Made by a program: the position numbers and the translations under genes. From an uncultured Eubacteriales bacterium (GTDB lineage Bacteria > Acidobacteriota > Aminicenantia > Aminicenantales > Saccharicenantaceae): DNA of 64,000 nt. The stretch spans positions 65,002 through 129,001 of the forward strand of contig CAYQZX010000022.1 in assembly GCA_964422165.1 (NCBI GenBank), read 5' to 3'. Numbering within the stretch: the first letter of the stretch is position 1; each line of letters starts with the position of its first letter. Positions 10,957 through 34,010 of the stretch are shown here, piece by piece. Under the pieces are notes generated by a model, which was not told the origin of the DNA, ran no database searches, and saw only the letters and a program-made list of their open reading frames with translations.

Positions 10957-12582
10957 TCAATTTTTTATTTCCTTATCCTCGAGTAGCCTTCTCCATTTAT
11001 CCATCAGGGCTCTGTTGAGGTCAAGCGGGGGCTTAGCTTCTTCCGGGAGAAAAGATTTATAGGGGTGGGTCTTTATATATTCTTCGAACTCGGCTCTGAT
11101 TTTTTTGAGTTCTTCCGGTCTGGTCAGCAGATCGATGGCGGTAAGAGCCATAGCTTTAGCCCCGGCGTTTAAACCTTTCCAGGCTATGGAACCGTAGACC
11201 GAGGCTACTGTCGACCAGTGGTGGCCCACTGCTCCGGGCACGTTGGATGGAAAACGGACGGTGGCCGTGGGAGCTACCAGAGTAACTTCCCCGACATCTG
11301 TAGAACCGCCACCAATAAAAGCTTCTCGCGGTTCTCTAAGCTTGCTGACTTCTTTTTTGAGTCCTTCCTCTCTCGCCTGGAGTTCTTTCTGTAGTGCCCG
11401 GGCAAATTCTTCCTCCTCCTTATCCCAGAGCGGCATACCGGTCAATTCGATGTTTTTCTGCAGAAGTTCAGCCAGAGCCCTATTGCCGTGAAATTGATGG
11501 GTAGCACTCAGGACTTTGAACTCAGAGAGCTCGGTGCCAGTGGCTAGGGCAGCCGCCTTAGCGCAGTTAGTTACTCTTTCAAACATCTGTTCTAAATGCT
11601 CGTCGGTGTTCCTGATGTAATACCAGACTGAGGCTCTGTCCGGAACGACATTGGGGGCTTCTCCTCCCTCCATGATGATGTAATGCAGACGGTGGGCGGG
11701 ATTTAAGTGTTCCCGGAGGTAGTTGGTGGCCACATTCATAAGCTCCACCGCATCCAGGGCGCTTCGGCCGGCCCAGGGAGCACCGGCGCTGTGAGCAGTT
11801 TTGCCCTTAAAGGTGAAGACCACCGAAATAACAGCGTTGCCGGAAACTCCGTAAGAGGTACCGAAGTCGCTGGAGCTGTGGTTGTCGAGGACAGCCTCCA
11901 CGTCCTTAAATAGGCCGGCTCTGACCATATAAGGACGGCTGGCCAGGATTTCTTCTGCCGGTGAACCAAAAACTTTGATTGTCCCTTTTATCCCGAACCT
12001 TTCCATGGCCTTTTTGGTGGCAATAGCGGCGGCTACGGCGGCTGTGCCCATGGTGTTATGACCGCAACCATGTCCGGGAGCTCCTTCTATCAGCGGGTCT
12101 TTTTTGGGAATTCTCCCTTTCTGGGAAAGCCCGGGCAGGGCGTCAAATTCTCCCAGAAAACCGATAACCGGCCGGCCTTCTCCGTAAGTAGCCACAAAGC
12201 AGGTCGGAAGGCCGGCCAGACCTCTTTCCACCCGAAATCCTTCCTTTTCCAGGGTCTCGGCTAGGAGGGCTGAAGATTTATACTCCTGAAGTCCGAGCTC
12301 AGCGAAGCTCCAGATGCGGTCTGAAATCTTTCCAAAATACTCAATCTGTTCTGGCTGATTGAGCCATTCCAGGACATATTTTTTTCCCCGGCTGATATTT
12401 AGGGATTGCTTTTTGCTTTCAGCCTGAATCTTTTGAGCAGCCGACAGGTAATCCCCGGCAGTCAACAAAATTAGCAGTATCAGAAAAAAATTAATCAGTA
12501 AGAATCTATGTCCAGGTCTCCTGAAGCGAGGTTTAAAAATTTCCGGGATTTTCTTCTCTTCCAGAATTTTGATCAGGTTCAT
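10957..12582 (-). CDS. M20 family metallopeptidase/amidohydrolase (AbgB/aminoacylase-like), with an N-terminal membrane anchor or signal
   Basis: GHGCGHN metal-binding motif, M20 dimerisation-domain-like middle region and an N-terminal hydrophobic helix. Its 3' end overlaps the next gene by 4 bp. Confidence 0.75.
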   Translation of the reverse strand: MNLIKILEEKKIPEIFKPRFRRPGHRFLLINFFLILLILLTAGDYLSAAQKIQAESKKQSLNISRGKKYVLEWLNQPEQIEYFGKISDRIWSFAELGLQEYKSSALLAETLEKEGFRVERGLAGLPTCFVATYGEGRPVIGFLGEFDALPGLSQKGRIPKKDPLIEGAPGHGCGHNTMGTAAVAAAIATKKAMERFGIKGTIKVFGSPAEEILASRPYMVRAGLFKDVEAVLDNHSSSDFGTSYGVSGNAVISVVFTFKGKTAHSAGAPWAGRSALDAVELMNVATNYLREHLNPAHRLHYIIMEGGEAPNVVPDRASVWYYIRNTDEHLEQMFERVTNCAKAAALATGTELSEFKVLSATHQFHGNRALAELLQKNIELTGMPLWDKEEEEFARALQKELQAREEGLKKEVSKLREPREAFIGGGSTDVGEVTLVAPTATVRFPSNVPGAVGHHWSTVASVYGSIAWKGLNAGAKAMALTAIDLLTRPEELKKIRAEFEEYIKTHPYKSFLPEEAKPPLDLNRALMDKWRRLLEDKEIKN

Positions 12583-13937
12583 GGTTTTTTCTCCTTTTCC
12601 CGTCTCTTGAATTTTTCGAGCAGTTCAGTATAGCGGTTGCTCAGGTCAACCTCTTTCCCTTCAATGAAGACTTTTTCTATCCTGGTGCCCAGCTCCAGCA
12701 GGTCGCCATCGGCAAGGACAAGGTTAGCCAGTTTGCCCTTCTCCAGGCTTCCCAGATCTTTATCCACCCCGAAAATTTCAGCCGGGTAAATGGTTACTGC
12801 CTTAAGGGCTTCTTTTCGGTCAAGGCCAAAGGCAGCGGCTTTAGCTGCATGGTAGGGGAGATCCTTGGCAGCGCTTGAGCTTGAAGAGGAAAAAGCTATC
12901 TTTATCCCGGCTCTGTTAAGGATACCGGGGTTAAGGAAAAGCGCATCATAGCCATCTTCCCAGAGTGGCGGCAGTTCATAAAGAGAACCAATGAGGCAGG
13001 GGATGCCGGATTTTTTTATTTCTTCAGCCACCTTAAATCCCTGATGAACACCATAGAAAATAGCTTTTATTTTTTCTTCCTGAACGAACTTGATAGTCTG
13101 GATGATGTCCTTATCGGCCTGGACAGAGAAGATAACCGGTAGTTCACCTTTAACTACTGGTAATAAAAAATGAGAAGCTTCGTCGAAATCAGGTCTGGGC
13201 AGAAGCAGGTTTTTCTCTGCTTCAGCTCTTCTTTTTTCATACATCCGGGCTTTATGGAAGAGTTCTTTGAGTTCAGCCAGAGCCCGCTCGGTCGAGACTG
13301 CTCCTGGCTGTCCCATCCCCATAAATCCCCGGCGTCCACCTCTTATTCCAGGGAGCTCCACGACCATAGCCAGGCTTTCTTTTATGGCCATCTGCCGGTT
13401 GGTCCAGCCATGGAGCTTGATTAAGGTGCTCTGGCCGGAGATAAGTCCACCAGAAGGAGCCACTACCGCCGCTAAGATGCCGTTAGCCCTGGCAATCGGA
13501 ATGTGCATTGAATCATATTTTAAGGCTTCAATAGCCTTAACCTGGGGATTTATCCGGCCTGTTTCTCTGTTGTCCACTGTGGCTGCTACCCCACTTATTT
13601 CGACTAGCCCCATGGAGGAGTAACTGTCTATCATTCCAGGATAGGCGGTCAGTCCTTTAGCTTCCACTATTCTGGTTCCGGGTGGAATGGAGACTGTAGT
13701 TCCAATTTCTGCAATCCGACCATTTTTTATTAATATAGTTCCCTCGGGTATTTCCTCCCCAACCACCGGGACAATTTTGACCTTGACGATGGCCAAAACT
13801 TCGCTGTCTTCGGGCCCAGCCGCTTTTACAGGGTTAATCCCTCCCATCAGCAGCCCAACCAGCAGGATTGAATACAGGATAAGTCTGGAGTGGGAGGTTT
13901 TTTGTTTTATGGCTGATTTTATTTTCTTGAGGTTCAT
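12579..13937 (-). CDS. Secreted amidohydrolase-superfamily paralogue with a degenerate metal site (GMIDSYS in place of HxH)
   Basis: Signal peptide, then GLTAYPGMIDSYS at the position where paralogue 13937..15247 has GIIDTHTH. The C-terminal TIM-barrel segments are conserved. Start overlaps (ATGA) the end of the gene at 13937. Confidence 0.65.
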   Translation of the reverse strand: MNLKKIKSAIKQKTSHSRLILYSILLVGLLMGGINPVKAAGPEDSEVLAIVKVKIVPVVGEEIPEGTILIKNGRIAEIGTTVSIPPGTRIVEAKGLTAYPGMIDSYSSMGLVEISGVAATVDNRETGRINPQVKAIEALKYDSMHIPIARANGILAAVVAPSGGLISGQSTLIKLHGWTNRQMAIKESLAMVVELPGIRGGRRGFMGMGQPGAVSTERALAELKELFHKARMYEKRRAEAEKNLLLPRPDFDEASHFLLPVVKGELPVIFSVQADKDIIQTIKFVQEEKIKAIFYGVHQGFKVAEEIKKSGIPCLIGSLYELPPLWEDGYDALFLNPGILNRAGIKIAFSSSSSSAAKDLPYHAAKAAAFGLDRKEALKAVTIYPAEIFGVDKDLGSLEKGKLANLVLADGDLLELGTRIEKVFIEGKEVDLSNRYTELLEKFKRREKEKKP

Positions 13938-15247
13938 CAGTTTCCTCCTTTCTTAATAGCTGCGGCTTCTCTTTCCTGAAGCAACTTCTCCCGATCGAAA
14001 TAAACTTCACCCTCAATAATGGTCAGGTCGCAGCGAGTGTAGGCGCTCATCGGATGTTCGCTGAAGAGAGCCAAGTCGGCCTGTTTACCAATCTCAATAC
14101 TTCCGACTATCTGGTCCACTCCTAACTGTTTGGCGGCGTTTATGGTTATCATTTTCAGGGCTTCATCAGGAGTAACTCCGTATTTAACCGCCTTTCCGGC
14201 CTCGTTGAACAGCCGTCGAATTCTTTCGCTGCTATCGGAGTTAATAGAAACCAGAATACCTCTTTGAGCACAGTAGGCGGCGTTGTAGGCAATGCCTTCG
14301 GCCGCTTCCATTTTGTAGGCCCAGCTGTCGATGAAGACCGAAACCCCGACTCCAGCTTCCAGAAGTTCATCAGTAATTTTGTAAGCTTCCCAGGCGTGTT
14401 CAAAAGCCCCTATTTTGAAACCGAACTCCCTGGCCAGGTTCAAAAACTCCACCATCTCAGTAGCTACGTAGGCGTGACAGCGGGCAATCAGCCGGCCGCG
14501 GAGCAGTTCAGCCAGGGTTTCTAACCTCAGGTCTTTTCTCGGTGGAATCAGATTAGCCGGGGGATTTTTGGATTTTTTCAGTTTTTCATAGCGGTCCCAT
14601 TCTGCCATATAATCTCTGGCTTTAAGCAGCTCCCGGCGAATGATGGCATTTGCCCCCATTCTGGTAGCTGGATAACGCTGGGGCCGGCCAGGCAGAAGAG
14701 TTCGATTGGACTGTTTAACATTTTCCCCCAGGGCAAATTTCAGAGTAGGAAAAGCCTCTTTTACAATTAGCTCCTCGGATGGTTTCCCCCATTTAAGTTT
14801 CAGGACTACGTTGACTCCCCCGATGGGGTTGGCGCTCCCGTGCATGGTATGGACCATGGTCACTCCACCGGTTAGAGCGGTGAAAATTGAGGAGTCATCG
14901 GCGTTGATAACATCAGCCATTCTAACTTCGGGGGTGATGGCTTCAGTCCCTTCATTCGTTCCGGAAAGAGCGATATGGGTGTGAGTGTCAATAATCCCGG
15001 GAATAAGATACCGACCGTTGGCTTCAATCACTCTGGTGCCGGGTGGAGCTGTCAGGTTCTGGCCTATCTGTTTAATCATACCGTTGACAATTAAAACATC
15101 ACCTTTTGGTATCACTCCTGAAGTTACAGTCATCACAGTGGCGTTTTTTATCAGCAGGTTGCCTCCGGCCAGCAAGCTGGAAGCCGAAAAACCCAGAATG
15201 GTCAAAATGGTTGAAAGAACTACTATCTTTTTTAACGAGGTTCTCAT
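13937..15247 (-). CDS. Secreted amidohydrolase (metal-dependent hydrolase, intact HxH motif)
   Basis: Signal peptide, PGIIDTHTHIALSG (canonical first metal-binding HxH), and later His/Asp residues in TIM-barrel positions. Confidence 0.7.
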   Translation of the reverse strand: MRTSLKKIVVLSTILTILGFSASSLLAGGNLLIKNATVMTVTSGVIPKGDVLIVNGMIKQIGQNLTAPPGTRVIEANGRYLIPGIIDTHTHIALSGTNEGTEAITPEVRMADVINADDSSIFTALTGGVTMVHTMHGSANPIGGVNVVLKLKWGKPSEELIVKEAFPTLKFALGENVKQSNRTLLPGRPQRYPATRMGANAIIRRELLKARDYMAEWDRYEKLKKSKNPPANLIPPRKDLRLETLAELLRGRLIARCHAYVATEMVEFLNLAREFGFKIGAFEHAWEAYKITDELLEAGVGVSVFIDSWAYKMEAAEGIAYNAAYCAQRGILVSINSDSSERIRRLFNEAGKAVKYGVTPDEALKMITINAAKQLGVDQIVGSIEIGKQADLALFSEHPMSAYTRCDLTIIEGEVYFDREKLLQEREAAAIKKGGN

Positions 15248-16581
15248 TGACCTTTCTCCTCATAATTAAAAACAATACCATCAACCAAGACTCTGACCAC
15301 TTTGGCCTTTTCGTCGAATAACTCGCCGCGGGTCAGGATAAGGTTGGCGATTTTGCCTGGCTCCAGGGTTCCGAGCTGTTTCTCAAGACCAAGCCAGCGG
15401 GCCGGTTCTATGGTTAAGGCCCTCAGGGCAGCTTCCTGAGAAAGTCCAGCTTTAATCGCCATCCTGAGATTTTTCAAGAAGCTGGAGTCAGACAGCCCGA
15501 AGCTGGTCAGAGCAAAAGCAATTTTTTCCCGGTGCAGGATGGCGGCATTGGCTGGATAAATTTCAGCCTCTGCTCTTTTCCTGGCTGCATCACCCTGTTG
15601 TGCATAGAGGCTGGTGCTGGGTGGCCGGAAATCCAGGTTGAGGAGCAGGGGAACCCTGGAATTTTTTAGCAGCTCTAGAACCCTCCAGGCTTCATTACAT
15701 CCGGTGAGCAGTCCGTTCAGTCGGAATTCAGCAATCAGACGCAGAGCTCTTTTGATGTCTTCCTGATTGTTACACTGAAAAACTACTGGTTTCTTCTCGA
15801 CCACGAACGGAATGAGGGCTTCTAAAAACGGGTCAAATTCTGGCCGTTTCAGGTTCAGGGGATTAGAATTATACCTTTTCCAGTGGTCAGAATAATGAAG
15901 GGTGTCGTAAAATTTCTGCCTCAAAAAAGCTACTGTGCCCATCAGGCTTGAAGGATAAAGACCTCGTTCAGTAGTGAAATTGATATGTAAAGCCCAGGGC
16001 TGCTTTAAGACCATAGTCTGAAGCTGGTCGCCGTTAAGGTTTAGAACCACACTTTGTCCTTGAAAAATTCCCCGGTTGGGAGCCACCACCACAGTGGTAA
16101 TTCCAACCTTATGATAGGATTCTATGGTCTGCTTTTTTGGTTTAAGCTGTTTTAAAACCAGAAGTTCCGGAAATTGCTGAGGTTCGGCCGGCTGAGTCAG
16201 GGCCTGGAAAAAATCTTCCGGTTGCCGGGGCTCCGACGGCTCCGGTGCTTCCAGAAACAGGTTGGTATGAGCCGAGATCAAACCCGGATAGGCCGTCAGA
16301 CCCGAGGCCTCGATGACTTCAGCGTCGGGAGGAATTTTGATTTTATCAGCCGGGCCTACAGCCTCAATCAGCCCATCCCGAACCAGGATTGTACCTTTGT
16401 CCAAAATCGGGCCGGCAACCGGGATTATCCGGCAGTTAACCAGAGCGTAGGCTGGTTTGACTTCAGCATTGGCTGACTGAGCAACCCAGCTTAAAAAGGT
16501 CATCGCGGAGACGACCAGAATGAATATGACCAGTGCTCCCCGATTTCTCCGGGGCTTGGTTTTTTCAGATTGCATCTTCAT
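15244..16581 (-). CDS. Secreted amidohydrolase-superfamily paralogue with a degenerate metal site (ISAHTN in place of HxH)
   Basis: Signal peptide and GLTAYPGLISAHTN. It is most similar to 12579..13937. It is the first gene of the three-gene overlapping set. Confidence 0.65.
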   Translation of the reverse strand: MKMQSEKTKPRRNRGALVIFILVVSAMTFLSWVAQSANAEVKPAYALVNCRIIPVAGPILDKGTILVRDGLIEAVGPADKIKIPPDAEVIEASGLTAYPGLISAHTNLFLEAPEPSEPRQPEDFFQALTQPAEPQQFPELLVLKQLKPKKQTIESYHKVGITTVVVAPNRGIFQGQSVVLNLNGDQLQTMVLKQPWALHINFTTERGLYPSSLMGTVAFLRQKFYDTLHYSDHWKRYNSNPLNLKRPEFDPFLEALIPFVVEKKPVVFQCNNQEDIKRALRLIAEFRLNGLLTGCNEAWRVLELLKNSRVPLLLNLDFRPPSTSLYAQQGDAARKRAEAEIYPANAAILHREKIAFALTSFGLSDSSFLKNLRMAIKAGLSQEAALRALTIEPARWLGLEKQLGTLEPGKIANLILTRGELFDEKAKVVRVLVDGIVFNYEEKGQ

Positions 16582-17615: not shown

Positions 17616-17832
17616 TTGCCGGAATCTGAAAGCGACTGCCAGAGAAACAGTTTAATGATATAGTCGGTGGCGGGAATTAAATTGCAGTTGAGCCGGGCTA
17701 TATAAGATTCAAGGCTGCAGAGAGTCCCGGATAAAAGGTAAGTTATTAGTTTTTTTAATCTGACCTGATTATCTGGTTGATTTAAGTTCATAAATGGATA
17801 AAATCAGAAAAAAACTTTAATGGAGTTCTGGA

Positions 17833-19863
17833 ATGCTTTCCACAATTGAAAGAATTATCCTGGCCCTGGTGGTGGGGCTAACTTTCTTCCTGTTCTTTAT
17901 TCCGGTATTCCGGAGAATCTGGATTTTAACCCGTCTTAAAGCTGAAAACCGGTTCGATTCTCTTTTTCGCCGCTTTTTTTACACGCTGTCGCGGGTTTTT
18001 TTCCAGCTCTGCACCTTAAAAAACGAAAGGCCCTGGACCGGTTTAGCTCATGCCCTGATTTTCTATGGAGCCCTGACTTTTGACACCATGACCGTTAATC
18101 ATTTGATAGAGGGTTATGTTGATGGTTTCTACCTTTTTGGTTCGACCTGGTTCGGGAAGCTTTTTTCTGCTTCAGTGGAAGTCTTTTCCCTGATGGTACT
18201 GGCCGGATTGCTCTTTTTTATTTTCAAAAGGTTTGTTCTCAAACCAACCGCTTACAACACCGGCTCCAGAGATTCTGCCTTGATTTATCTTTTTATCTTT
18301 CTGGCTGTGTCTACCTATCTTTTGTTCAAAATGATGGTAGTGGTTCAGCATCCAACTGAAGGCAACTGGAGCTTTCTCAGCCAGTTTTTAGCCAGGCTCC
18401 TGAAGCTTTCAGATTTTTCCGGCGAAGCTCTGGAGTTTTACCTGAAGTTTGCCTACTGGCTTCACACCCTGGTGGTTTTAGCCTTTATCTCTTATGTGCC
18501 TCATTCAAAGTATTTTCATCTTTTCGCCGGGCCGGTTAATCTTTTTTTCCGAAAACACCGTCCCACTGCTGAAATGCCAGTCCTGGACCTGGAAGCAGCC
18601 GAAAATTTCGGAGTTGAGAGGGTGAACGATTTTACCTGGAAAGACGGACTGGATGCCCTGGCCTGTGTGGAGTGCGGTCGCTGTCAGGATGTCTGCCCGG
18701 CTTTTTTGAGCGGGAAAGCCCTCTCACCCAAGATGGTCATAGTTAATCTGGAAAAACATCTTCTGGCTTCATATCCGAAGTTAAAAGCAGGGAAAGCACA
18801 AGAGCTTCCGACTCTTGTCCCTCAGGTTTTCAAGGAAGAGGAAATCTGGACCTGTACTACCTGCGGAGCCTGCCTTCACGTCTGTCCTTTTGACATTGAA
18901 CATCCACCAAAGCTCCTCAGTCTGAGACAGAATCTGGTCCTGGCTAAGGGTCATTTTCCCGTCGAACTTAAAAGTTTCTTCCAGAAGCTGGAAACTTTCG
19001 GAAATCCATGGGGATTTCCCCCTTCTAAGAGAGCAGAACTGGCCTCTGAGCTTGGGGTTCCGACCTTAAGCCAGTTTCCGCAAGCTGACTACCTTCTCTG
19101 GCTGGGCTGTTTTGGTTCCTTTGATGAGCATGGCCAGAAAACAACCAGAGCCATGGTGAAGATTCTTAAGGAAGCCGGGTTAAAATTCGCCATCCTAGGA
19201 GAAGAAGAGCACTGCTGTGGCGATTCCGCCCGTAGGCTGGGCAATGAATACCTGTTTCAATGCCTGGCTCTCAAAAACCTGAAAACTCTGGCCAGAAAAA
19301 GAATTTCCAGGCTGATTACTTTCTGCCCCCACGGCTACAATACTTTCAAGAATGAATATCCTGCCTTACTGGAGATACTGCCAGATTTTAGTTGCGAGGA
19401 AAAAGAGAATCTCAGAGCCATAAAAGTCATTTCTCATGTGGAACTGCTGGCAGAATTGATAAGGAAGAAGAGGGTAAGGCTTAAAGTCGTAGGTGAAGGG
19501 GAAACCTATACTTTTCATGATTCCTGTTATTACGGACGTCATAACGGGCTTTTCAGCCAGCCCAGAGAAATTCTGGCGACAGCTCTGGGAGGTCGGATTA
19601 AAGAACTCGGCCGTTCGAGAGAGCACAATTTTTGCTGTGGAGCTGGTGGCGGTTTGATGTGGACCGAAGAGAAAGCGGGAAAGCGAATCAATCACCTGCG
19701 GAGCGAGGAGATAATAAGAAACGGCAGCCAGCTGGTTGCCACCTCCTGTCCCTTCTGCCTGACCATGCTTCAAGACGGGTTGCGAGATAAAGGAGCTGAA
19801 AATATCAGGGTGCTGGATGTAGCTCAGGTTATGGCTCAGGCGATAGACCGTGATGAAAATTAA
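17833..19863 (+). CDS. Membrane-anchored iron-sulfur oxidoreductase: N-terminal 5-TM His-containing (NarI/HdrE/DsrM-like) domain fused to an HdrD/DsrK/GlpC-like module (2x[4Fe-4S] plus 2 CCG domains)
   Basis: TM helices in residues 1-230 with conserved His. CVECGRCQDVCP and CTTCGACLHVCP ferredoxin motifs. CCGDSARR and CCGAGGG plus CPFC cysteine-rich CCG repeats. Confidence 0.7.
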   Translation: MLSTIERIILALVVGLTFFLFFIPVFRRIWILTRLKAENRFDSLFRRFFYTLSRVFFQLCTLKNERPWTGLAHALIFYGALTFDTMTVNHLIEGYVDGFYLFGSTWFGKLFSASVEVFSLMVLAGLLFFIFKRFVLKPTAYNTGSRDSALIYLFIFLAVSTYLLFKMMVVVQHPTEGNWSFLSQFLARLLKLSDFSGEALEFYLKFAYWLHTLVVLAFISYVPHSKYFHLFAGPVNLFFRKHRPTAEMPVLDLEAAENFGVERVNDFTWKDGLDALACVECGRCQDVCPAFLSGKALSPKMVIVNLEKHLLASYPKLKAGKAQELPTLVPQVFKEEEIWTCTTCGACLHVCPFDIEHPPKLLSLRQNLVLAKGHFPVELKSFFQKLETFGNPWGFPPSKRAELASELGVPTLSQFPQADYLLWLGCFGSFDEHGQKTTRAMVKILKEAGLKFAILGEEEHCCGDSARRLGNEYLFQCLALKNLKTLARKRISRLITFCPHGYNTFKNEYPALLEILPDFSCEEKENLRAIKVISHVELLAELIRKKRVRLKVVGEGETYTFHDSCYYGRHNGLFSQPREILATALGGRIKELGRSREHNFCCGAGGGLMWTEEKAGKRINHLRSEEIIRNGSQLVATSCPFCLTMLQDGLRDKGAENIRVLDVAQVMAQAIDRDEN

Positions 19864-19934
19864 GGGCCGGTCGGAGGGCAAAGCCAGGCCTCCTTGCCTT
19901 AGGATAGAAAATCAGCTATAAATATAAAATCAGT

Positions 19935-20008: not shown

Positions 20009-20088
20009 CTTTTTTTATGGGGTTTATATCCGGTCTTAGGCTGAAATTTTTTGACATAAAAGCTGGTTTTAAGTAGCCTTTAAGTGAA

Positions 20089-20997
20089 ATGGCTTTTCTG
20101 GATGGCAAAAGCTGGTGTCTGAAGGCAAGGGGTGGAGGTGGATTGTCCGCTTCAGGCCAGCGAAGTCGGGGTTTTTTAGTCTGTTCAAGTGTTGTGGTCT
20201 TATTTTTTTCTTTTTGGTTTATTTTTCTAAATTTTGGCCATAGACCTTTTACTTTGATGCTGGCAGTTTTGGGGAACGACCAGGGGTCAGGGGCTTTGAT
20301 TGACCTGCCTGAAGTGGCTCAAGAAGTGATTTTTGAAAATGGACTTAAGACCTGGGAAGATAAAAATCAGTACTCCAGGAAAAAACTATACCGGGTTATC
20401 CGGGTGGCTGACGGAGATACCCTGGAACTGGAGGGCAAAGGTGTTGTAAGGTTAATCGGTGTGGACACTCCTGAACTCTCTCATCCCCTTAAACCAGTTC
20501 AGTATTATGCCCGGGAAGCTACTGATTTTGTCAGAAAGCTGGTCGACAAATCTAAGGTCTGGCTGCGTTACGACCAGGAGAGGACTGACAAATATGGTCG
20601 CACCCTGGCTTATGTTTATTTAGAGGATGGGCGCTGTTTGAATGAGGAGATCATCAAAAATGGTTATGGCTTTGCTCTGACCAGGTTTCCCTTCAAAGAT
20701 TTACTTAAATATAAAAGGCTGGAAGAAGAAGCTAAAAAGAAAGAGCTCGGACTCTGGGCCAATCAGGGGCTGGATGAATTTCGCTGGGTTCTGGAGCAGA
20801 AAGTTTTGCCTTATGAAATTTACGAACTGGCCAACAATCTGTGGGCTATAAAGTATAAAAATTATGTCAGGCTACGACTTACGACTGAAGAGCTGGGCAA
20901 AGTGGTTCGTGACCTGAGACAATGGACCGGCGAATTTTCTGACCGCGACCTGGAGAAAACTCTTCTTGACAATGGCTGGCTTAAGGTTAGGCGATGA
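20089..20997 (+). CDS. Staphylococcal-nuclease-like (SNase/thermonuclease) domain protein with an N-terminal hydrophobic anchor. Start codon is uncertain
   Basis: RVADGDTLEL...VRLIGVDTPE...QYYAREAT...KYGRTLAYVY SNase catalytic core. A hydrophobic segment (VVVLFFSFWFIFL) lies upstream. The true start may be downstream, for example Met at 20257. Confidence 0.7.
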   Translation: MAFLDGKSWCLKARGGGGLSASGQRSRGFLVCSSVVVLFFSFWFIFLNFGHRPFTLMLAVLGNDQGSGALIDLPEVAQEVIFENGLKTWEDKNQYSRKKLYRVIRVADGDTLELEGKGVVRLIGVDTPELSHPLKPVQYYAREATDFVRKLVDKSKVWLRYDQERTDKYGRTLAYVYLEDGRCLNEEIIKNGYGFALTRFPFKDLLKYKRLEEEAKKKELGLWANQGLDEFRWVLEQKVLPYEIYELANNLWAIKYKNYVRLRLTTEELGKVVRDLRQWTGEFSDRDLEKTLLDNGWLKVRR

Positions 20998-21836
20998 GAA
21001 AGAAAGCTTTCTGGTCAGTGATTCTTCTGGCTCTAATTTTTTCCGTGTCTAGGCTGGTTTTTATTTTCTCTCAGGAAAAAGTAATTTCCTGGGAAAAAGC
21101 AGGGGATTATGTCGGTCAAACGGTTACGGTTGAAGGAGTTATAGTCAGAGCTCATAATTCGGGCCGGGCCTGTTTTTTAAATTTTCATCCTGATTACCAG
21201 AAGTATTTGAGCCTGGTGATATTTGCTTCAGATTTTAACCGGTTTCCTTCGCAACCAGAAAAATATTATCTTAATAAAAAAGTCAGGGTTAAAGGCCGAG
21301 TATTAATTTACCGGGGCCGACCTGAAATAATCCTGAGCTCACCGGAGCAGATAAAATTGGTCTCCGGGACCGGTCGGGTAGGATTTCCATCAGATCAGAT
21401 GAAGGGCCAGGCTGGACAGGAAGAAGAGGAAACGGTCAAAAAACCGACCCTTCCGGCGACCTCAAAGACTGCAGGCAGTAAAGAGGTCTCACCTGAAAAT
21501 TCTTCCCAGAAAATTTCAGGAGAGGACCGGTTTGCGAGAGCAGTCAAAGAAATATCCTGGGAAGAGGCGACCGATTATCTCGGTCAGACAGTTTGGGTTC
21601 GGGGAAAAGTGGTGGCTACTCACAATTCTGGTAAAGCCTGCTTTTTGAATTTTCACCGCAACTGGCGAAGATATTTCACAGTGGTGATCTTTGCCAGCAA
21701 TTTCCATCTCTTTCCGAAACGGCCAGAAGACCTCTTTCTTAACCGGGAAATAAGGGTTTATGGGCAGATACGGGAGTATCAGGGCAAACCGGAGATTATC
21801 GTGGAAAGCCCTGAACAGATAGAGATTATTCGTTAG
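20994..21836 (+). CDS. Tandem OB-fold (nucleic-acid-binding-like) domain protein, translationally coupled to the SNase gene
   Basis: Two roughly 95-aa internal repeats (ISWE.A.DY.GQTV.V.G.VV..HNSG.ACFLNFH...VIFAS.F..FP..PE......V.G....Y.G.PEII..SPEQI) separated by a Glu/Lys-rich linker. N-terminal signal or anchor. 4-bp ATGA overlap with the upstream gene. Confidence 0.5.
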   Translation: MRKKAFWSVILLALIFSVSRLVFIFSQEKVISWEKAGDYVGQTVTVEGVIVRAHNSGRACFLNFHPDYQKYLSLVIFASDFNRFPSQPEKYYLNKKVRVKGRVLIYRGRPEIILSSPEQIKLVSGTGRVGFPSDQMKGQAGQEEEETVKKPTLPATSKTAGSKEVSPENSSQKISGEDRFARAVKEISWEEATDYLGQTVWVRGKVVATHNSGKACFLNFHRNWRRYFTVVIFASNFHLFPKRPEDLFLNREIRVYGQIREYQGKPEIIVESPEQIEIIR

Positions 21837-22845
21837 AACAGCTCAGCCCAAGTTTCTTTTGATAATACTTCTGGTGATATTCTTCCGCCCGATAAAAGCC
21901 GCGAAAAGGTGCTATTTCAGTAACGATTTTTTTCCGGTATTTTCCATTCTGCTGAAGTTCAGCTTTTACTTTTTCGGCGATTTTTTTCTGCTCCTGGTCA
22001 TGATAGAAGATGGCTGAGCGATAGTTGGGACCAACATCAGGTCCTTGACGGTTGTACTGGGTGGGGTCGTGAAACTCGAAGAACTTTCTAATTAATTGCT
22101 CATAGGAAATTACGGTTGGGTCAAAAACTACTTGGACTGCTTCGGCGTGCCCGGTTCTGCCGGTCAGTACCTGCTGGTAGGTGGGGTTGATGACTTTGCC
22201 TCCACTATAGCCGACGGTTGTTTCCAGGACTCCTTTTATCTGGCTTAGGGAATACTCCACTCCCCAGAAACAGCCGGCCGCCAAAGTGGCCACCTGAGGC
22301 AGCTCCTTTCTGGCATCTTCAGCCGGTTTGAAATTTAAGGCAACCGAATTGATGCAGTAATGTTTACCTGTGGGAGCCGGACCGTCGTAAAACAGGTGTC
22401 CGAGATGAGCCCCACAGCCACCACATCTGACTTCAATCCGATGGGTGCCCAGGGATAAGTCATCATGATATTCAAGATAAGCTTCGGCAAATGATTCCTT
22501 AAAGCTGGGCCAACCAGTCCGGTGGTCATACTTATCTTCAGAACGGAACAAGGGATTACCGCAGGCAACACAGAGGTAGATTCCTTCTTCCCAGAAATCA
22601 TTGTATTTTCCCGAAAAGGGCCTTTCTGTTCCTTTCTGAAACATTACCCGGAACTGTTCAGGGGTCAGCTCTTTTTTCCATTCCTCCAGTGATTTATTAA
22701 CTTTTTTCATGGTTTGTTCCTCGAGTGACTGATTAAGAGCTGAGGAAGCGCTTTGATAAAAAAGGGCATTAAGGCCCTTCCAGCCAGCCCAGGACAGAAG
22801 CAGGCTCAGTCCCAGAATTATGGCTTTTTGATAAAACTTTAGCAT
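21826..22845 (-). CDS. msrAB: Bifunctional peptide-methionine sulfoxide reductase MsrB-MsrA fusion, secreted or periplasmic
   Basis: N-terminal signal peptide. The MsrB domain has CxxC...CGWP-like motifs (CVACGNP, RCGGCGAHLGH). It is followed by MsrA (GCFWG active site, HAE, FHDPT). Confidence 0.85.
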   Translation of the reverse strand: MLKFYQKAIILGLSLLLSWAGWKGLNALFYQSASSALNQSLEEQTMKKVNKSLEEWKKELTPEQFRVMFQKGTERPFSGKYNDFWEEGIYLCVACGNPLFRSEDKYDHRTGWPSFKESFAEAYLEYHDDLSLGTHRIEVRCGGCGAHLGHLFYDGPAPTGKHYCINSVALNFKPAEDARKELPQVATLAAGCFWGVEYSLSQIKGVLETTVGYSGGKVINPTYQQVLTGRTGHAEAVQVVFDPTVISYEQLIRKFFEFHDPTQYNRQGPDVGPNYRSAIFYHDQEQKKIAEKVKAELQQNGKYRKKIVTEIAPFRGFYRAEEYHQKYYQKKLGLSCSNE

Positions 22846-24540: not shown

Positions 24541-26319
24541 TTATTCATATGATAGACAGATCCCCACCGAGCCTATCCCGTTGTGCACTCCGACTACGGG
24601 TGAAGTGTCCAGGATGAAGCTAACCGGTTTCCCGCAGATATTTTCAATCTCCCGGGCATAAGCTTGGGCCCGGTCCGGTTCGCTTACATGGACTATAGCA
24701 AAGGAGTGAATAGGATGCTGACGGTGTTTCTCTCTTACCATTTTCAGAATCTTTTTGAAATTCTGCTTTCGGCTGAAGGACTTGCCGGCCGAAGTGGCTT
24801 TGCCTTCTTCGTTCAGGGTGATAATGGGTTTTATATTCAGAAGTTTAGCCAGCAGGCCTTTAGCCGGGCTCACCCGGCCTCCCTTGACCAGGTATTTTAA
24901 TGTTTTAACGTCAACCAGAAGTTCGGTCTTAGCTGAGAGCTCCTCGGCTTTTTTAGCCAGTTCATCCACTTCCTGATTGCCGGGCCAATCATCCAGCAGA
25001 CGCTTGACTATCAGGCCAAAAGTGCCAGACAGATGACGAGTGTCAACCACCCGGATTTTTTTATCGGTAAATGTTTCAGCCACTTTTTTTACCAGATGGT
25101 GATAACCGGAAAGCCCGCTGGAAATGGTCAGGACCAGGATGGACTCAAAATGACTGCTCAGAAAGGAAAACCAGTTTTCTAAGGTTTTGGGAGACGGCTG
25201 AGCACTCCGGGGCAGGATTTCTCCCTGACTCATCAGCTGGTAGAGTTTATCCGGAGTGATGGTCAGCTTGTCAAGAAAAACCTGATCGCCGATGTTGATC
25301 AGGAAGGGTATTACCACTACCTGGTACTGTTCAAGCCAATGAGCGGGTAAATCGCAGGAAGAATCCACTACCAGAGCTACCCGGCTATTTGGTCTTAGAC
25401 TTATTTCAGCTTGAAGCTTCATGTCTTCAACCTTGGGCTGAACGATGGTGCCTAAATCTTTCAGGGCATAGAACAATTCAGCTGGGTGGTTGGTATGGAC
25501 ATGAAAACGGGCTTTGGACTCAGAACCGCCGATAATGGCTGAATCTCCGGCCTGGACTACAATTTTCTTGATTGTTTCTAAATCCAGAGCTTCACCTTGA
25601 ATCAGGGCTTCGGTACAGTAGCGATAAGTTAGATTTTCCCGAATTTTATGGGGAGTTTCCTTTAATTCAATCTCAGGCAGTTCATCTTTAATAATGCTTT
25701 TCAGATTGCCCTGTCTGATAAAGTTGACTACACCCTCAATGAAATCAACAAAACCTCTGGCCCCGGCATCTACCACCCCGGCCTTTCTCAGTACGGCCAG
25801 CTTTTTAGGGGTTTCCTGGAGAGCAGCCCTGGCTCTTTCCAGTGAATGATGAAGCAGCTCCTGGTAGTCGGCGAAGCGGTGCCGGTTATGATAAACTTCA
25901 TCAGCCCACTCCCGGATGAGGGTTAGCATGGTTCCCTCCTGAGGATGAGCGATGGCATTGTAAGCGTAACGGACAGCGTTGCGGACAGATTCTCCAAAAC
26001 GAGAGGTGGTTACCCTGATTTCATTTCCGAGTTCCCTGCTGAGGCCGTAAATGAACTGAGCGAAGATTATTCCCGAGTTACCCCGGGCTCCCGTTAGAGC
26101 GGCTTCGGCAATGGAATGGAGAACTTCTTTAATTGAGCGGGCCGGTCGGGCCTGCTCGGCAATGGCTTTCATGGTTGAAGCCAGGTTGGTTCCAGTGTCG
26201 CCATCAGGGACTGGAAAAACATTAATCTGGTTCAGATAAGCAAAATCTTTGATAACGGCTTTACCCCCCGCCAGGAAAGCAAGATAAAATCTTTTTCCGT
26301 CCAGATATTTAATTTTCAT
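24541..26319 (-). CDS. DAK2-domain fusion protein (YloV family) with a DegV-like C-terminal domain
   Basis: N-terminal DAK2 motif (PVPDGDTGTNL...RGNSG) and C-terminal DegV-like segment (ALVVDSSCDLP.......VVIP). Confidence 0.7.
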   Translation of the reverse strand: MKIKYLDGKRFYLAFLAGGKAVIKDFAYLNQINVFPVPDGDTGTNLASTMKAIAEQARPARSIKEVLHSIAEAALTGARGNSGIIFAQFIYGLSRELGNEIRVTTSRFGESVRNAVRYAYNAIAHPQEGTMLTLIREWADEVYHNRHRFADYQELLHHSLERARAALQETPKKLAVLRKAGVVDAGARGFVDFIEGVVNFIRQGNLKSIIKDELPEIELKETPHKIRENLTYRYCTEALIQGEALDLETIKKIVVQAGDSAIIGGSESKARFHVHTNHPAELFYALKDLGTIVQPKVEDMKLQAEISLRPNSRVALVVDSSCDLPAHWLEQYQVVVIPFLINIGDQVFLDKLTITPDKLYQLMSQGEILPRSAQPSPKTLENWFSFLSSHFESILVLTISSGLSGYHHLVKKVAETFTDKKIRVVDTRHLSGTFGLIVKRLLDDWPGNQEVDELAKKAEELSAKTELLVDVKTLKYLVKGGRVSPAKGLLAKLLNIKPIITLNEEGKATSAGKSFSRKQNFKKILKMVREKHRQHPIHSFAIVHVSEPDRAQAYAREIENICGKPVSFILDTSPVVGVHNGIGSVGICLSYE

Positions 26320-27814: not shown

Positions 27815-30800
27815 TTAGCGGATTACCTGATAAATTTCCCTCCAGGACCTGATACGCAGTAAGGCTCCTACCGGTTGTTCCAGCTTTTCTATGGTGGAGT
27901 CGTATTCTTGGATGTAAACATCCTGCTTGTAGGAACCCCCAACCCTCTGTCTTTCACCAACCGTAACTGCGGTTCGGGCTTTGCTGGCCAGAGCTAAATA
28001 GTCCAGGGCCTGCCCCTGAGCGTTTTTAAGGGCACTTCCGCCTACCGGCACACCCAGAACAGGCTGGATGAACCGGGCATACAGCCGGCCGAAGTCACCT
28101 AAGTTCTGGCAGGGGTCGGCGGCTTCTATGCTGCCTTTTAAGGTGCTGAAGTAAACTATGTAATTGGCTATTACCGGGTCGGCCCAGATTTTCTCCCCAG
28201 CCTCTAAGGAGCCTACGAATTTAGCGCTTCCGAGACCAGTCTCGGCGACATTGCCCATGTACCATTCAAGTTCCACTTCAGGATTGTCGGTCCGGAGGTT
28301 TCCATTTTTATCCAGATAAACCTTATCTATTAAAGCGACAAAGGAATAGCTTCTATCAGCCGGAGCACTTTCATGCCCGCCTGTTCCAAAATAAATCCTG
28401 GGGTAGTTGGAGCCTGAAGCGGAAAAACCCAGCCAGATAGCTGGTTTGGTGATTATCGGATAGAGACAACGGTCGCGGAATATTTCCGTCATCCTCCAGC
28501 TACCAGGATTTTGAGAGGTGACATCCAGACGCCAGATCCTTCCATCCAGGTCGGCAATATAAACACAGTCCACATATCCATCTTTGTTTAAGTCCGAGCC
28601 GTTAGGGGAACCTGGAAGGGAAACATAAATGTTGGGAAAAGGATTGCCGGACCGTCTTCGGTCTGAAGAGTTTAGGTCAGAAATTCTGGTTGACCAGAGT
28701 ACTCTACCGTCTTCAATGTTGATGGCGGCGAGGGTATTGCCGATGTAAGCCTGATAGCCAGCATCTACAGGATGGCAATAACCTGAACCGACAAAAGCCA
28801 CCCAGGTTGGATTCCCTGAGACATTAACCCTGGCTATGTAGGGAACTGACCAGGTTTGACCGTTGGTCATATTATAATTCTGGCCCTGTCTTCTAATTCT
28901 ATCACCGGCGAATTCCCACATCGGGATGGGATTTTCCGGGTCAGTAACATCAAGAGCAAAATAGTAATAATGATAATTCTGGGTTTGACCGTTGTTGAAG
29001 CCATCAGGAGCCTGTCCCTGGCCTTCTCCCTGGCCACAGACCAGAACTGTTCGCCACTGACCATTTATGAAAACATCGGAGACAGAAGGTGAGCTGTCCA
29101 CATAAGCTTTTCTGGAAAAGTATCTGAGTTTTCTAGCCTGGTCAACCGGCCACATTTCCTTTAACCGGGAAAGCTGGTTATAGGGTATAAAGGCCCAGAG
29201 CTCCTCTCCGCTGGAAGCGTCAAAGCAATGCAACATACCGTCGTTAGCTCCAATATAGACGACTTTCCTTCTGTCTGATAATGCCTGTTTAAATTCAGCA
29301 TAGCCGCTTCCCATCAAACGCGGGTCTTCCTGCGGTGGCCCGACCACGGCCGGGGTGGAGTGGTTGATGTCCCCCAGTCTCCAGTAGCGGCCGTGCCCCC
29401 TGACGAAAAGAATTAAGCCTTCCTCGTTGTTCTGATAATCTCTAAGGATAGGTCTTAAAAGTTCCAGGTTGGCCAGGTTAAATTCAACCCTCTGAAGGTT
29501 TCCAGAAGCTGGTCTGTTAGGATTTATGGCAGTGTAGATAGTTCGGGTCCTGGGGTCGCGGTCCATCAAAAGTTCTCCTGCATCCCAGAGCAGCTCCACT
29601 CCCTCTGCCAGCCAGCGTCCGGTATCAGACCCTAGCTCTGAGGCAGTAACGGTCCGCAGGTTGGAATAATTATTTTGAACAGCTCTCATTCCGGTTACAT
29701 CGTAAGCTCTCAAGTGCCCTTCCCAGCCTGGATAGATAAACGAAGCTGCGATTATTAGCTTGCGGTTCTGCCCGAGCCTGTCAATCAACGATGTGGCTAC
29801 TGAGGAGCGGGAATATTCTCTTCTGCTCACATAGGTGAACTCAATGGTCAGCTGTCTGATTAGGGGTGTGTCATAGGAAGCTCCTGTGTATTCAGCCATT
29901 TGATCTTCCTGGGCTTCCAACACCGCTTTCCAGCGGAGGTCACCTCCAAAATTGCTAAAAACATGCCAATCCGAATCTGACCAAGGACGGATGTCACTGC
30001 CTTCAAAAGTCCGGTATCGTTCCCAGTGCAGACCGCCATCGTTAGAGAGATAATAGGTTATCATGAGCCCGGAAGAAGAGCCGCTCACTCCCTGATTCAG
30101 GTTAATGATTCTGGCTTTGGTAATGGCATATTGTCTCGGGTTTATCAGATTGCTCACCACGTTGGTAGAAACAGCTTCACCGTAAAGCACATAGACATCT
30201 GCTAAGAGGTTTATTACCAGATAGTAGTCTCCTGAATGGTTGGCATCAGCCAAAATCAGGTCGTAGTCACCATCACTGTCGTAATCCGTTACGCAAGCAA
30301 TATCCACGTCATAATCAGGAGGGATAATGGGTTGACAGTTATTTTCGCACTTAAAAATCCAGTTAATTTCATAATAGGTTTCTTCTTCTCCAGTTTCCGG
30401 ATTGGTTACAGTGACTGGTGTTCTGCCCATGTTACGCAGCCACCAGATTTTTGCCCGGTTGCCGGCATTCCAGCGGTCAGTGGCTACAAAAATATCTTTC
30501 CAGCCGTTTTGGTCGAAATCAGCCACGGCGATGGCTACTGTTCCAGTGCAGGTTGGGTCCGGGATGGGGATTTCACTGCGGATGAATTTGCCTGTTCCAT
30601 CATTCTGGTAATAGACCAGAAAAGGCCAGCCGTTGACTGACCCGCAGACTACATCAATATCTCCATCCAGGTCAAAATCAGCGGCGGCTACAGCCGAAGT
30701 TCCGCGGTCAGTAAAACCACCAGCCGGTAACGGGGCTTTATAACCTGTTCTCTGGTTATAATTAAGCTCTTCTACTGACCACTCAGAGAGAGAAAAGCGC

Positions 30801-31576: not shown

Positions 31577-31654
31577 TTCACTTCTCCTCTTCCCGATTCC
31601 TTCGGGATTTCAAATTGCTTTTTTTCTTTTAATCTCGTTGTTTTTTTAAGCAAT

Positions 31655-33495: not shown

Positions 33496-33504
33496 TTTTT
33501 TCTC

Positions 33505-33990: not shown

Positions 33991-34010
33991 GCTTTCTTAC
34001 CCCTTCTCCC

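Follow-up and report, generated by a model that had tools for sequence, protein, structure and literature searches.

A single gene in an Aminicenantes bacterium resembling "Ca. Saccharicenans" joins a cytochrome b-like membrane domain to iron-sulfur domains of the heterodisulfide reductase type, which raises the question of what reaction such a fused protein serves and from which donor to which acceptor it passes electrons. The open reading frame (ORF) encodes 676 aa from an ATG start and lies at 17833..19863 on the plus strand of the window, the whole 64,000-nt stretch of DNA that was analysed. In public databases the protein and its relatives carry only the names "Fe-S oxidoreductase", "(Fe-S)-binding protein" or "heterodisulfide reductase-related", and the nearest relatives belong to entries named Candidatus Saccharicenans and Aminicenantes. 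The features of the locus, all on the plus strand, are as follows.

17777..17804, plus strand: putative promoter, TTGATT-16 nt-TAAAAT, from a consensus scan, 29 nt 5' of the start codon
17822..17825, plus strand: GGAG ribosome-binding site, read from the sequence, 7 nt 5' of the ATG
17833..19863, plus strand: probable emo/etfD-type gene, ORF of 676 aa plus stop, with a full-length match to 9OJN
17833..18552, plus strand: membrane domain, residues 1-240, from Pfam PF02665, the AlphaFold2 helices and the positive-inside rule
18610..19032, plus strand: HdrC-like ferredoxin domain, residues about 260-400, from motifs, Pfam Fer4_8 and other models
19075..19860, plus strand: HdrB-like non-cubane-cluster (2xCCG, NCB) domain, residues about 415-676, from Pfam and alignment to 9OJN and HdrB
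20031..20053, plus strand: terminator-like stem-loop and T-run, from a consensus scan, in the gap that separates the stop codon from the next gene (20089)

The ORF is a genuine and conserved gene rather than a chance feature. At E<=1e-30, a library of 1.84 billion representatives contains 1671 clusters (50% identity) that match it, and the initial M1 and L2 are kept in 45/45 homologs. A 171-aa antisense ORF inside the gene (19366..19881) was set aside as a shadow ORF. Upstream, the TAAAAT -10 element and the flanking AAAATG are kept in four of five Saccharicenans-type loci, while GGAG and ATGCT are unchanged across the alignment of all five; the promoter-like site is thus a consensus match plus conservation, short of functional proof. 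The downstream stem is weak, with five pairs, so its assignment as a terminator is suggestive only. The gene accordingly has transcription signals of its own, promoter-like and terminator-like by consensus.

The N-terminal part of the protein is predicted to be a NarI/HdrE-like cytochrome b with five transmembrane (TM) helices. Pfam recognises Nitrate_red_gam/NarI on residues 117-242 with a score that exceeds the gathering threshold (E 7.5e-6), and the AlphaFold2 model (pLDDT 85, pTM 0.83) contains five long TM helices (4-33, 66-93, 106-136, 145-172 and 197-224) together with two short connecting helices, in an N-out/C-in topology that agrees with the distribution of Lys and Arg. All 45 close homologs keep H73, H211 and H229. 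HMMER alignment to 9OJN, the Mycobacterium smegmatis enzyme (Ms), equates H73 with Ms H78, H211 with Ms H223, H229 with Ms H241, R133 with Ms R137 and R283 with Ms R306; the published counterparts of the three His in the Syntrophus aciditrophicus enzyme (Sa) are H87, H233 and H251, respectively. The predicted haem ligands are therefore H73 and H229 at the proximal position and H211 at the distal position, with R133 as a putative propionate contact. Among 150 representatives at 34-50% identity, 134 have these three His and R133 as well as the five Cys of the proximal cluster. Three further residues at the periplasmic helix ends, E6, H90 and E93, are invariant in the Aminicenantes-type lineage and not general in the family, and by the alignments they appear to be lineage-specific. 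A link between these three residues and the distal-site signature described below held in a first set but failed across the 21 representatives with CCCCHG, and it was rejected as a family rule.

The soluble part resembles HdrD, that is, HdrC and HdrB in succession. A 4Fe-4S dicluster domain (Pfam, residues 275-355) contains two CxxCxxCxxxC motifs, C278/C281/C284/C288 and C341/C344/C347/C351, which form two cubane [4Fe-4S] sites and correspond to Ms C301/304/307/311 and C412/415/418/422. It is followed by two CCG domains (Pfam, E 3e-27) with their CCG motifs at C461-C462 and C601-C602. The distal site is made up of C426, C461, C462, C498 and G501, and the proximal site of H500, C565, C601, C602, C639 and C642. 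All eight cubane Cys and H500 are present in 150/150 representatives (34-50% identity), and the haem and cluster ligands known from publications are all present and invariant in the 45 close homologs. Within the first CCG domain the CxxC element reads C498-P-H500-G501, as against C-N-G-C in HdrB, C-P-H-C in MsEtfD and H534/G535 at the corresponding place in SaEMO. Domain models, predicted structure and motifs therefore agree with the architecture that the first-pass annotation had read from the DNA, namely a five-TM NarI/HdrE-like domain with conserved His followed by two [4Fe-4S] and two CCG modules, and the three His of the membrane domain map onto the haem His of EtfD and SaEMO.

Family placement relied on curated-HMM scores, ranking of PDB sequences and ranking of folds. 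Among PDB sequences, phmmer matched M. smegmatis EtfD (9OJN) at E 3.2e-107 over query residues 7-324 and 333-673, with 30% identity, and the next matches were HdrC and HdrB at about 20-26 bits. Foldseek with the AlphaFold2 model likewise returned 9OJN as the sole full-length match (E 2e-35, TMq 0.83 over 744 columns), followed by LutA and HdrB (TMq 0.30, CCG domain only) and NarI (0.19, TM domain only). None of the NCBIfam curated models reaches its cut-off, the best being TfrB at 134 bits vs 385. The architecture, the full-length sequence and fold homology to a solved EtfD, the presence and invariance of the ligands, the His in place of the Hdr substrate, the missing Hdr catalytic Cys and the CC...CPHG distal signature are direct observations, and on this basis the gene probably encodes an ETF:(methyl)menaquinone oxidoreductase of the EMO/EtfD type. 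The first-pass claim that the enzyme interacts with quinone is thus supported by homology. EMO and its complex with EtfAB (by cryo-EM) have already been characterised biochemically and structurally, and EMO is reported from all (M)MK-containing fatty-acid degraders. The gene is therefore an ordinary, poorly annotated member of a characterised family. Its one-polypeptide form, which had been taken as unusual, is the defining architecture of this very large family, and the partner described as unknown is, for EMO/EtfD, EtfAB.

Two members of the family allow a residue-level comparison. SaEMO, the ETF:methylmenaquinone oxidoreductase of S. aciditrophicus (bioRxiv 10.64898/2026.08.18.745454; Agne et al. 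2021 cited there), shares with the query a single polypeptide (706 aa vs 676 aa), five TM helices with two short connecting helices, HdrC-like and HdrB-like domains, three conserved His at similar spacings (146/18 vs 138/18 in the query), the CC...C-P-H-G distal signature and a His ligand on the proximal cluster. The distal site of SaEMO (CC...CPHG, H534/G535) holds a [4Fe:5S] cluster, and its twin-haem pocket and distal quinone site involve E187 and A101 as twin-haem residues and E22 and H109 as proton donors (bioRxiv 10.64898/2026.08.18.745454). AlphaFold3 with haem ligands is reported in that preprint to yield both the tri-haem and the mono-haem states. Judged by the residues quoted in that preprint, the CC...CPHG element of the query is assigned to the SaEMO variant, and its distal cluster would be [4Fe:5S]-like. 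The SaEMO sequence itself was found neither among the PDB sequences nor in a residue-fingerprint search of the 150 representatives, of which the 706-aa P0189 is a different protein. The two proteins differ in setting: the query belongs to an Aminicenantes bacterium, which is not a known syntroph, and its gene stands alone. In S. aciditrophicus (locus tag SYN_02638) and S. wolfei the emo gene presumably adjoins etfAB.

EtfD (MsEMO) of Mycobacterium smegmatis/tuberculosis (PDB 9OJN; EMBO J 2026, PMC13083937) is the full-length homolog (E 3e-107, TM-score 0.83) and has identical haem, cubane and proximal non-cubane ligands. It differs at the distal site, where C-T...C-P-H-C binds a linear [3Fe-4S] cluster in place of the C-C...C-P-H-G of the query, and in its length of 1042 aa, about 265 of which form a disordered extension at the C-terminus that the query lacks. 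The quinone-stacking F85 of MsEtfD corresponds to A80 in the query, whereas the equivalent of F230 is kept as F218. Mitochondrial and proteobacterial ETF-QO (ETFDH) shares the proposed role of passing ETF electrons to quinone, but it is not homologous, being a monotopic FAD/[4Fe-4S] protein.

The first-pass annotation had proposed a self-contained quinol:disulfide oxidoreductase, a fused analogue of HdrED, DsrMK or HmeCD. Its substrate, a heterodisulfide or a DsrC-like trisulfide, would be reduced at the CCG clusters with electrons from the quinol pool. The fold and domain order do match HdrE plus HdrD, there are weak matches to the HdrB and HdrC sequences and to the HmcF, DsrK and TmcB models, and the first CCG motif retains both Cys (C461/C462) as in Hdr. 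HdrDE of Methanosarcina has three equivalent modules in an equal spatial arrangement, including non-cubane cluster domains, and DsrMK, HmeCD, TmcBC and HmcEF likewise pair a NarI-like cytochrome b with an HdrD-like CCG protein. These are, however, separate subunits, two polypeptides in HdrDE, in contrast to the fused query, which also has no dsr genes nearby and whose nearest relatives are Aminicenantes rather than methanogens with CoM/CoB. HdrDE transfers electrons from methanophenazine to CoM-S-S-CoB, the opposite physiological logic, at an open catalytic site with ten Cys in its CCG domains, whereas the query has nine Cys and one His, with CPHG in place of CxxC. The HdrB-type pattern of ten Cys in two CX31-39CCX35-36CXXC motifs is accordingly broken, as the first motif of the query ends in C-P-H-G. 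H500 occupies the Hdr CoM position and G501 replaces the bridging, catalytic Cys, both invariantly. In EtfD/EMO this His fills the CoM site as a ligand of the proximal cluster and thereby keeps it from catalysis; with the Hdr substrate site blocked and the catalytic Cys lost, the reduction of a disulfide is disfavoured. EtfD is the closer match by many orders of magnitude, the clusters are shielded and non-catalytic in both solved EMOs, and the curated scores lie far below their NCBIfam cut-offs (DsrK 63 vs 400, HmcF 69 vs 750 and TmcB 62 vs 735 bits). The flanking sequence speaks the same way and bears out the earlier statement that dsr, hdr and apr genes are lacking: of the 47 window ORFs listed with 150 aa or more, 44 were scanned and no dsr, hdr, apr or qmo gene was found among them. 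The scan covers PilY1 (27815..31576) through its Pfam hits and leaves out the gene itself and two ORFs taken as antisense shadows. Disulfide reduction is hence highly improbable as the function of this protein.

Still more remote is an Fe-S subunit of the GlpC/LutA/GlcF/LdhH type that has gained a membrane anchor, the parent enzyme being a dehydrogenase of glycerol-3-phosphate, lactate or glycolate. LdhH and GlpC give partial NCBIfam matches and LutA ranks second in Foldseek, but these scores fall well short of the cut-offs (LdhH 128 vs 800, GlpC 55 vs 278 and GlcF 22 vs 333 bits), so that DsrK, HmcF, TmcB, GlpC and GlcF together span 22-69 bits against cut-offs of 278-750, and the LutA match is confined to the CCG domain. 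Known proteins of this type have no five-TM haem domain, neither glpAB, lutBC, glcDE nor an FAD-dehydrogenase partner is adjacent, and only EtfD matches over the full length. Grouping with a family of ordinary function, which the earlier annotation had named as grounds for giving up its reading, did come about in spirit; the family is EMO/EtfD rather than GlpC/LutA.

As an EMO/EtfD-type enzyme, the protein would take part in the following sequence. Acyl-CoA dehydrogenases of fatty-acid or amino-acid catabolism would reduce EtfAB, which would then dock on the cytoplasmic HdrB-like domain and hand single electrons to the two non-cubane Fe-S clusters, serving here for electron transfer and not for catalysis. 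From there electrons would pass through the two cubane [4Fe-4S] clusters to haem b of the five-TM NarI-like domain and on to menaquinone. In the opposite direction, quinol could supply electrons for enoyl-CoA. ETF as the donor in the Aminicenantes host and menaquinone as the acceptor are both predicted from the characterised homologs. A distal haem site may in addition couple quinone chemistry to pmf, the arrangement of S. aciditrophicus. Such coupling is the least certain element, since the distal His is also kept in the single-haem mycobacterial enzyme.

The genomic context bears mainly on the donor. With sequences from distant loci as queries, tblastn (E<=1e-5) against the window and 86 loci detected no etfA, etfB, acyl-CoA dehydrogenase (ACAD), thiolase or 3-hydroxyacyl-CoA dehydrogenase gene in the 64-kb window, nor within +/-10 kb in 60-odd non-Bacillaceae loci, mostly of the Aminicenantes type; matches among the 86 loci lie only outside Aminicenantes. 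There the partners do adjoin the gene (loci L072, L068, L080 and those of Bacillaceae), with the order ACAD-EtfB-EtfA-EMO in a Methylomirabilis locus, EtfA-EMO in a Thermoplasmata locus, and EMO-thiolase-3-hydroxyacyl-CoA dehydrogenase-ACAD and then a further ACAD, a TetR gene or both in 14 Bacillaceae loci. In the window, as in the remaining Aminicenantes-type loci, the gene stands alone, and because etf and beta-oxidation genes are not found locally, the functional link rests on homology and distant relatives. Mycobacterium tuberculosis, where etfAB (rv3028c/29c) and etfD (rv0338c) are not linked, provides a precedent for a stand-alone gene. A complex I (nuo) operon adjoins the gene in divergent orientation in Aminicenantales relatives, and a polyprenyl synthetase gene lies at 40559..41587 in the window; both hint at a quinone-pool context.

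An EMO-fold enzyme that feeds the quinone pool of Aminicenantes with electrons not from EtfAB but from some other flavoprotein, a ferredoxin or a protein linked to NAD(P)H is unlikely, although several observations point towards it. Neither in the window nor in the non-Bacillaceae loci, which are mostly of the Aminicenantes type, do etf or beta-oxidation genes ever adjoin the gene, and the lineage has its own invariant residues on the periplasmic side (E6, H90 and E93). An Lpd-like pyridine-nucleotide-disulfide oxidoreductase gene also occurs within +/-10 kb in 22 Aminicenantales-type loci, in those displayed either directly upstream on the opposite strand or one gene away. This divergent neighbour was considered as a partner; common as it is in Aminicenantales loci, it is missing from the Saccharicenans clade and so is not a conserved partner, and no other donor is consistently co-encoded. 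Against a changed donor it also counts that mycobacterial genes are unlinked as a rule, yet ETF is the donor there, and that the ETF-facing NCB domain, with the SaEMO signature, is the best-conserved part of the protein. The papers found describe Aminicenantes as fermentative, which counts against the EMO reading, as do the low identity (30%) to the solved EtfD and the lack of a curated NCBIfam model that claims the protein; the literature consulted on Aminicenantes/Saccharicenans, which did not extend to the Saccharicenans genome paper, contained nothing specific on ETF, beta-oxidation or menaquinone.

With the EMO/EtfD label, Aminicenantes/Saccharicenans gain a predicted entry of ETF-borne electrons to the quinone pool, which bears on the question of whether these bacteria, abundant in the subsurface and in digesters, are purely fermentative. 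The understanding of the EMO/EtfD family itself is unchanged. A more far-reaching proposal, namely that Aminicenantes possess either a pmf-coupled SaEMO-type enzyme in which a distal haem site accompanies a [4Fe:5S] cluster, or an enzyme whose donor has been re-wired from ETF, is doubtful, though not negligible. If the SaEMO-type, pmf-coupled form were true, enoyl-CoA respiration or a reverse redox loop dependent on menaquinone would operate in the lineage, and Aminicenantes would be cryptic syntrophic or respiratory oxidisers of acyl-CoAs derived from fatty acids or amino acids.

Across the family, the distal Fe-S site falls into several discrete signature classes: CT..CPHC, CC..CPHC, CC..CPHG, CN/CS..CPHC and a Bacillaceae class without ligands. 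The CC...CPHG signature of the query occurs in 21 of the 150 representatives, and these classes could steer the choice of members for structural work.

The ORF reported by the first-pass annotation lies exactly at 17833..19863 (+), and its 676-aa product is a member of the EMO/EtfD family. The best solved-structure match is 9OJN_A ("Iron-sulfur-binding reductase", E 3.2e-107), which spans both the membrane and soluble halves and corresponds to Mycobacterium smegmatis EtfD (MsEtfD) (PMC13083937); HdrC and HdrB follow at 20-26 bits only. When a confident AlphaFold2 model (from 45 homologs; pLDDT 85, pTM 0.83) was searched with Foldseek, 9OJN was the sole full-length match (E 2e-35, TM-score 0.83, 744 aligned columns), and NarI matched the membrane domain only (TM 0.19). 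EtfD and the ETF:methylmenaquinone oxidoreductase (EMO) of Syntrophus aciditrophicus (SaEMO) constitute one family, in which a 5-TM NarI-like cytochrome b, an HdrC-like module with two cubane clusters and an HdrB-like non-cubane cluster (NCB, 2xCCG) domain form a single polypeptide (PMC13083937; bioRxiv 10.64898/2026.08.18.745454). Because two structure papers describe this three-module chain, the single-gene fusion, earlier regarded as unusual, is a defining trait of EMO/EtfD. The proposed architecture itself (membrane domain, 2x[4Fe-4S] and 2xCCG in one chain) is confirmed by the model, by Pfam (NarI-type domain PF02665, residues 117-242; 4Fe-4S dicluster domain, residues 275-355; two CCG domains, E 3e-27) and by two CxxCxxCxxxC and two CCG motifs. 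Among 1.84 billion representatives, the family is very large, with 1671 clusters (50% identity) under an E<=1e-30 cut-off and 5946 when this is relaxed to E<=1e-10. Public annotation of the query and its relatives is generic, and the query is a new, unremarked member, in a candidate lineage, of a family already structurally characterised.

Published ligands were placed on the query through a HMMER alignment to MsEtfD.

Ligand residues of the query and their published counterparts
Proximal haem His: query H73, H229; MsEtfD H78, H241; SaEMO H87, H251
Distal His: query H211; MsEtfD H223; SaEMO H233
Haem propionate contacts: query R133, R283; MsEtfD R137, R306
Cubane clusters: query C278/281/284/288, C341/344/347/351; MsEtfD C301/304/307/311, C412/415/418/422
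Proximal non-cubane cluster: query H500, C565, C601, C602, C639, C642; MsEtfD H583, C637, C672, C673, C709, C712; SaEMO H534
Distal cluster: query C426, C461, C462, C498, with G501; MsEtfD C503, C538, T539, C581, C584; SaEMO G535 at the G501 position

All mapped query ligands, including the haem pair H73/H229 and H211, are invariant across 45 homologs (52-74% identity); the earlier reading had suggested predicting His-ligand positions. In a set of 150 more distant representatives (34-50% identity), every one has H500 and all eight cubane Cys, and 134 keep the three His, R133 and five proximal Cys. [quoted passage not shown]

The first-pass annotation had read the protein as a quinol:disulfide oxidoreductase resembling HdrED, DsrMK and HmeCD. 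The first CCG motif ends in C-P-H-G in the query, whereas the aligned HdrB motif ends in C-N-G-C. In EMO/EtfD, this His takes the place of CoM and rounds off the ligand set of the proximal cluster, rendering it non-catalytic, and the Cys at the query's Gly position is the bridging/catalytic Cys81 of Hdr (PMC13083937; bioRxiv 10.64898/2026.08.18.745454). Since H500 occupies the CoM site and the catalytic Cys is replaced by G501, the disulfide-reductase reading is argued against directly. The scores likewise do not place the query with GlpC/LutA, the ordinary function that had been considered: the curated GlpC model scores 55 bits (cut-off 278), and the Foldseek matches to LutA and HdrB are confined to the CCG domain (TM 0.30). 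The remaining curated models also fall far below their cut-offs, namely GlcF (22/333), LdhH (128/800), DsrK (63/400), HmcF (69/750) and TmcB (62/735).

The best explanation, which we judge quite probable, is an ETF:menaquinone oxidoreductase mechanism. Reduced EtfAB would dock via EtfB on the NCB domain, the mode of docking described for the SaEMO-EtfAB complex (bioRxiv 10.64898/2026.08.18.745454), and give single electrons to the non-cubane clusters; by way of the two cubane clusters these would reach haem b and, finally, menaquinone. Cofactors in EtfD lie 4-9 Å apart (PMC13083937). The chain would be reversible, as in enoyl-CoA respiration. For this organism, we infer which donor and acceptor are used from homology and from gene neighbourhoods in distant relatives. 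Peptidases and amino-acid transporters are abundant in the window, which also encodes one large CoA-enzyme-activase-type protein, a gene content that would fit acyl-CoAs from amino acids as the electron source. With regard to the proposed acceptor, a polyprenyl synthetase (40559..41587, -) could provide a menaquinone with its isoprenoid side chain, although such an enzyme is not specific to menaquinone.

The proximal cluster, H500 and cubane ligands are near-universal in the family, unlike the distal Fe-S site, which varies in discrete signature classes. These were read at query positions 426/461/462/498/500/501 in homologs from genomic loci L007-L086 and in the 150 representatives (P0121-P0270).

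Distal-site signatures among the 150 representatives
C-C-T-C-H-C: 49, MsEtfD type, linear [3Fe-4S]
C-C-C-C-H-C: 45, full Cys set
C-C-C-C-H-G: 21, the query's class
C-C-N-C-H-C: 19
C-C-S-C-H-C: 8

Bacillaceae homologs have lost every distal ligand (S/N/S/D/A). The query shares with SaEMO, judged by its published residues, the CC...CPHG signature and a similar size; the disordered ~265-aa extension at the MsEtfD C-terminus is absent from it. In SaEMO this signature (H534/G535) accompanies an extra sulfide, giving a [4Fe:5S] cluster; the enzyme also has a twin haem and a pmf-coupled distal quinone site, for which the distal His is no marker in the query, since single-haem MsEtfD keeps it as well (bioRxiv 10.64898/2026.08.18.745454). 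Residues E6, H90 and E93, at periplasmic helix ends, are invariant in the query's lineage and not family-wide. The bacteria that carry this SaEMO-type enzyme are generally described as fermentative, and ETF is its presumed donor there.

Set off from its neighbours by spacers of 217 bp and 225 bp, the emo gene looks monocistronic.

Features of the emo gene
17833..19863, +: emo/etfD-type ORF, ATG start, 676 aa
17777-17804, +: promoter-like TTGATT-16-TAAAAT (consensus scan); -10 element kept in 4/5 aligned Saccharicenans-type loci
7 nt 5' of the ATG, +: GGAG ribosome-binding site; GGAG and ATGCT start kept in 5/5 of these loci
From 20031, +: weak terminator-like hairpin 3' of the gene (consensus scan)

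A 171-aa antisense ORF (19366..19881, -), almost wholly within the gene, was treated as a shadow ORF.

The surrounding genes encode three paralogous amidohydrolases, an M20 peptidase, a small DUF3996 protein, an SNase-like nuclease, an OB-fold protein, MsrBA, DUF1295 and a Dak2-DegV fusion. When the remaining ORFs of the window with 150 aa or more were scanned (all but two antisense shadow ORFs), none proved to be an etf, acyl-CoA dehydrogenase (ACAD), dsr, hdr, apr or qmo gene, bearing out the reported absence of flanking dsr/hdr/apr genes. In M. tuberculosis, etfD (rv0338c) and etfAB (rv3028c and rv3029c) are unlinked, a precedent for a stand-alone emo gene. The nearest homologs carry the names Candidatus Saccharicenans and Aminicenantes (Acidobacteriota); an identical protein with the same neighbours occurs on a 298-kb JGI contig, and synteny is also kept in a Saccharicenans genome.

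A species-genome scan yielded 80 loci, whose flanking ORFs were clustered and Pfam-annotated, from Aminicenantes to Omnitrophota, Zixibacteria, Fraserbacteria, Bipolaricaulota, one Thermoplasmata archaeon, Methylomirabilis and many Bacillaceae. In 14 Bacillaceae loci (L073-L086), the homolog heads a conserved EMO-thiolase-3-hydroxyacyl-CoA DH-ACAD operon, in which another ACAD and/or a TetR gene comes next. Methylomirabilis carries ACAD-EtfB-EtfA-EMO and the Thermoplasmata archaeon EtfA-EMO (contexts listed under L072, L068 and L080). None of these etf/beta-oxidation-type genes lies within 10 kb in 60-odd non-Bacillaceae loci, most Aminicenantes-type. In Aminicenantales, the homolog is often divergent from an adjoining pyridine-nucleotide-disulfide oxidoreductase (Lpd-like) flavoprotein gene and a complex I (nuo) operon, as in L004-L006 (53% identical homolog); the Lpd-like gene occurs in 22 loci and is absent from the Saccharicenans clade.

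Several other genes of the window merit description. The 1398-aa protein at 1293..5489 (-), with two BcrAD_BadFG ATPase and two DUF2229 domains, is a giant activase-like fusion of the CoA-enzyme (2-hydroxyacyl-CoA dehydratase) type, a possible sign that the organism carries out radical chemistry on acyl-CoAs. The 592-aa protein at 24541..26319 (-), kept in Saccharicenans loci, joins Dak2, a FakA-like middle domain and DegV, and is presumably fatty-acid-kinase-like, uniting a FakA-type with a FakB-type module in a single chain. At 10957..16581 (-), a tight operon, syntenic in relatives and preceded upstream by a prolyl oligopeptidase and an SSF transporter, encodes the three amidohydrolases (445, 436 and 452 aa; stop/start codons overlapping) and the M20 peptidase, all with an N-terminal hydrophobic segment in translation. 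The SNase-domain gene of the 20089..21836 (+) pair overlaps by 4 bp the gene for a 280-aa protein, whose translation reveals an internally duplicated OB-fold-like module. The MsrB-MsrA fusion (SelR+PMSR; 21826..22845, -) has an N-terminal hydrophobic segment in translation; this methionine sulfoxide reductase is probably exported or anchored. Lastly, 27815..34541 (-) holds a type IV pilus tip/minor-pilin cluster, whose products are a PilY1/FG-GAP protein of 1253 aa, a PilW-like protein and GspH/N-methyl pilins.
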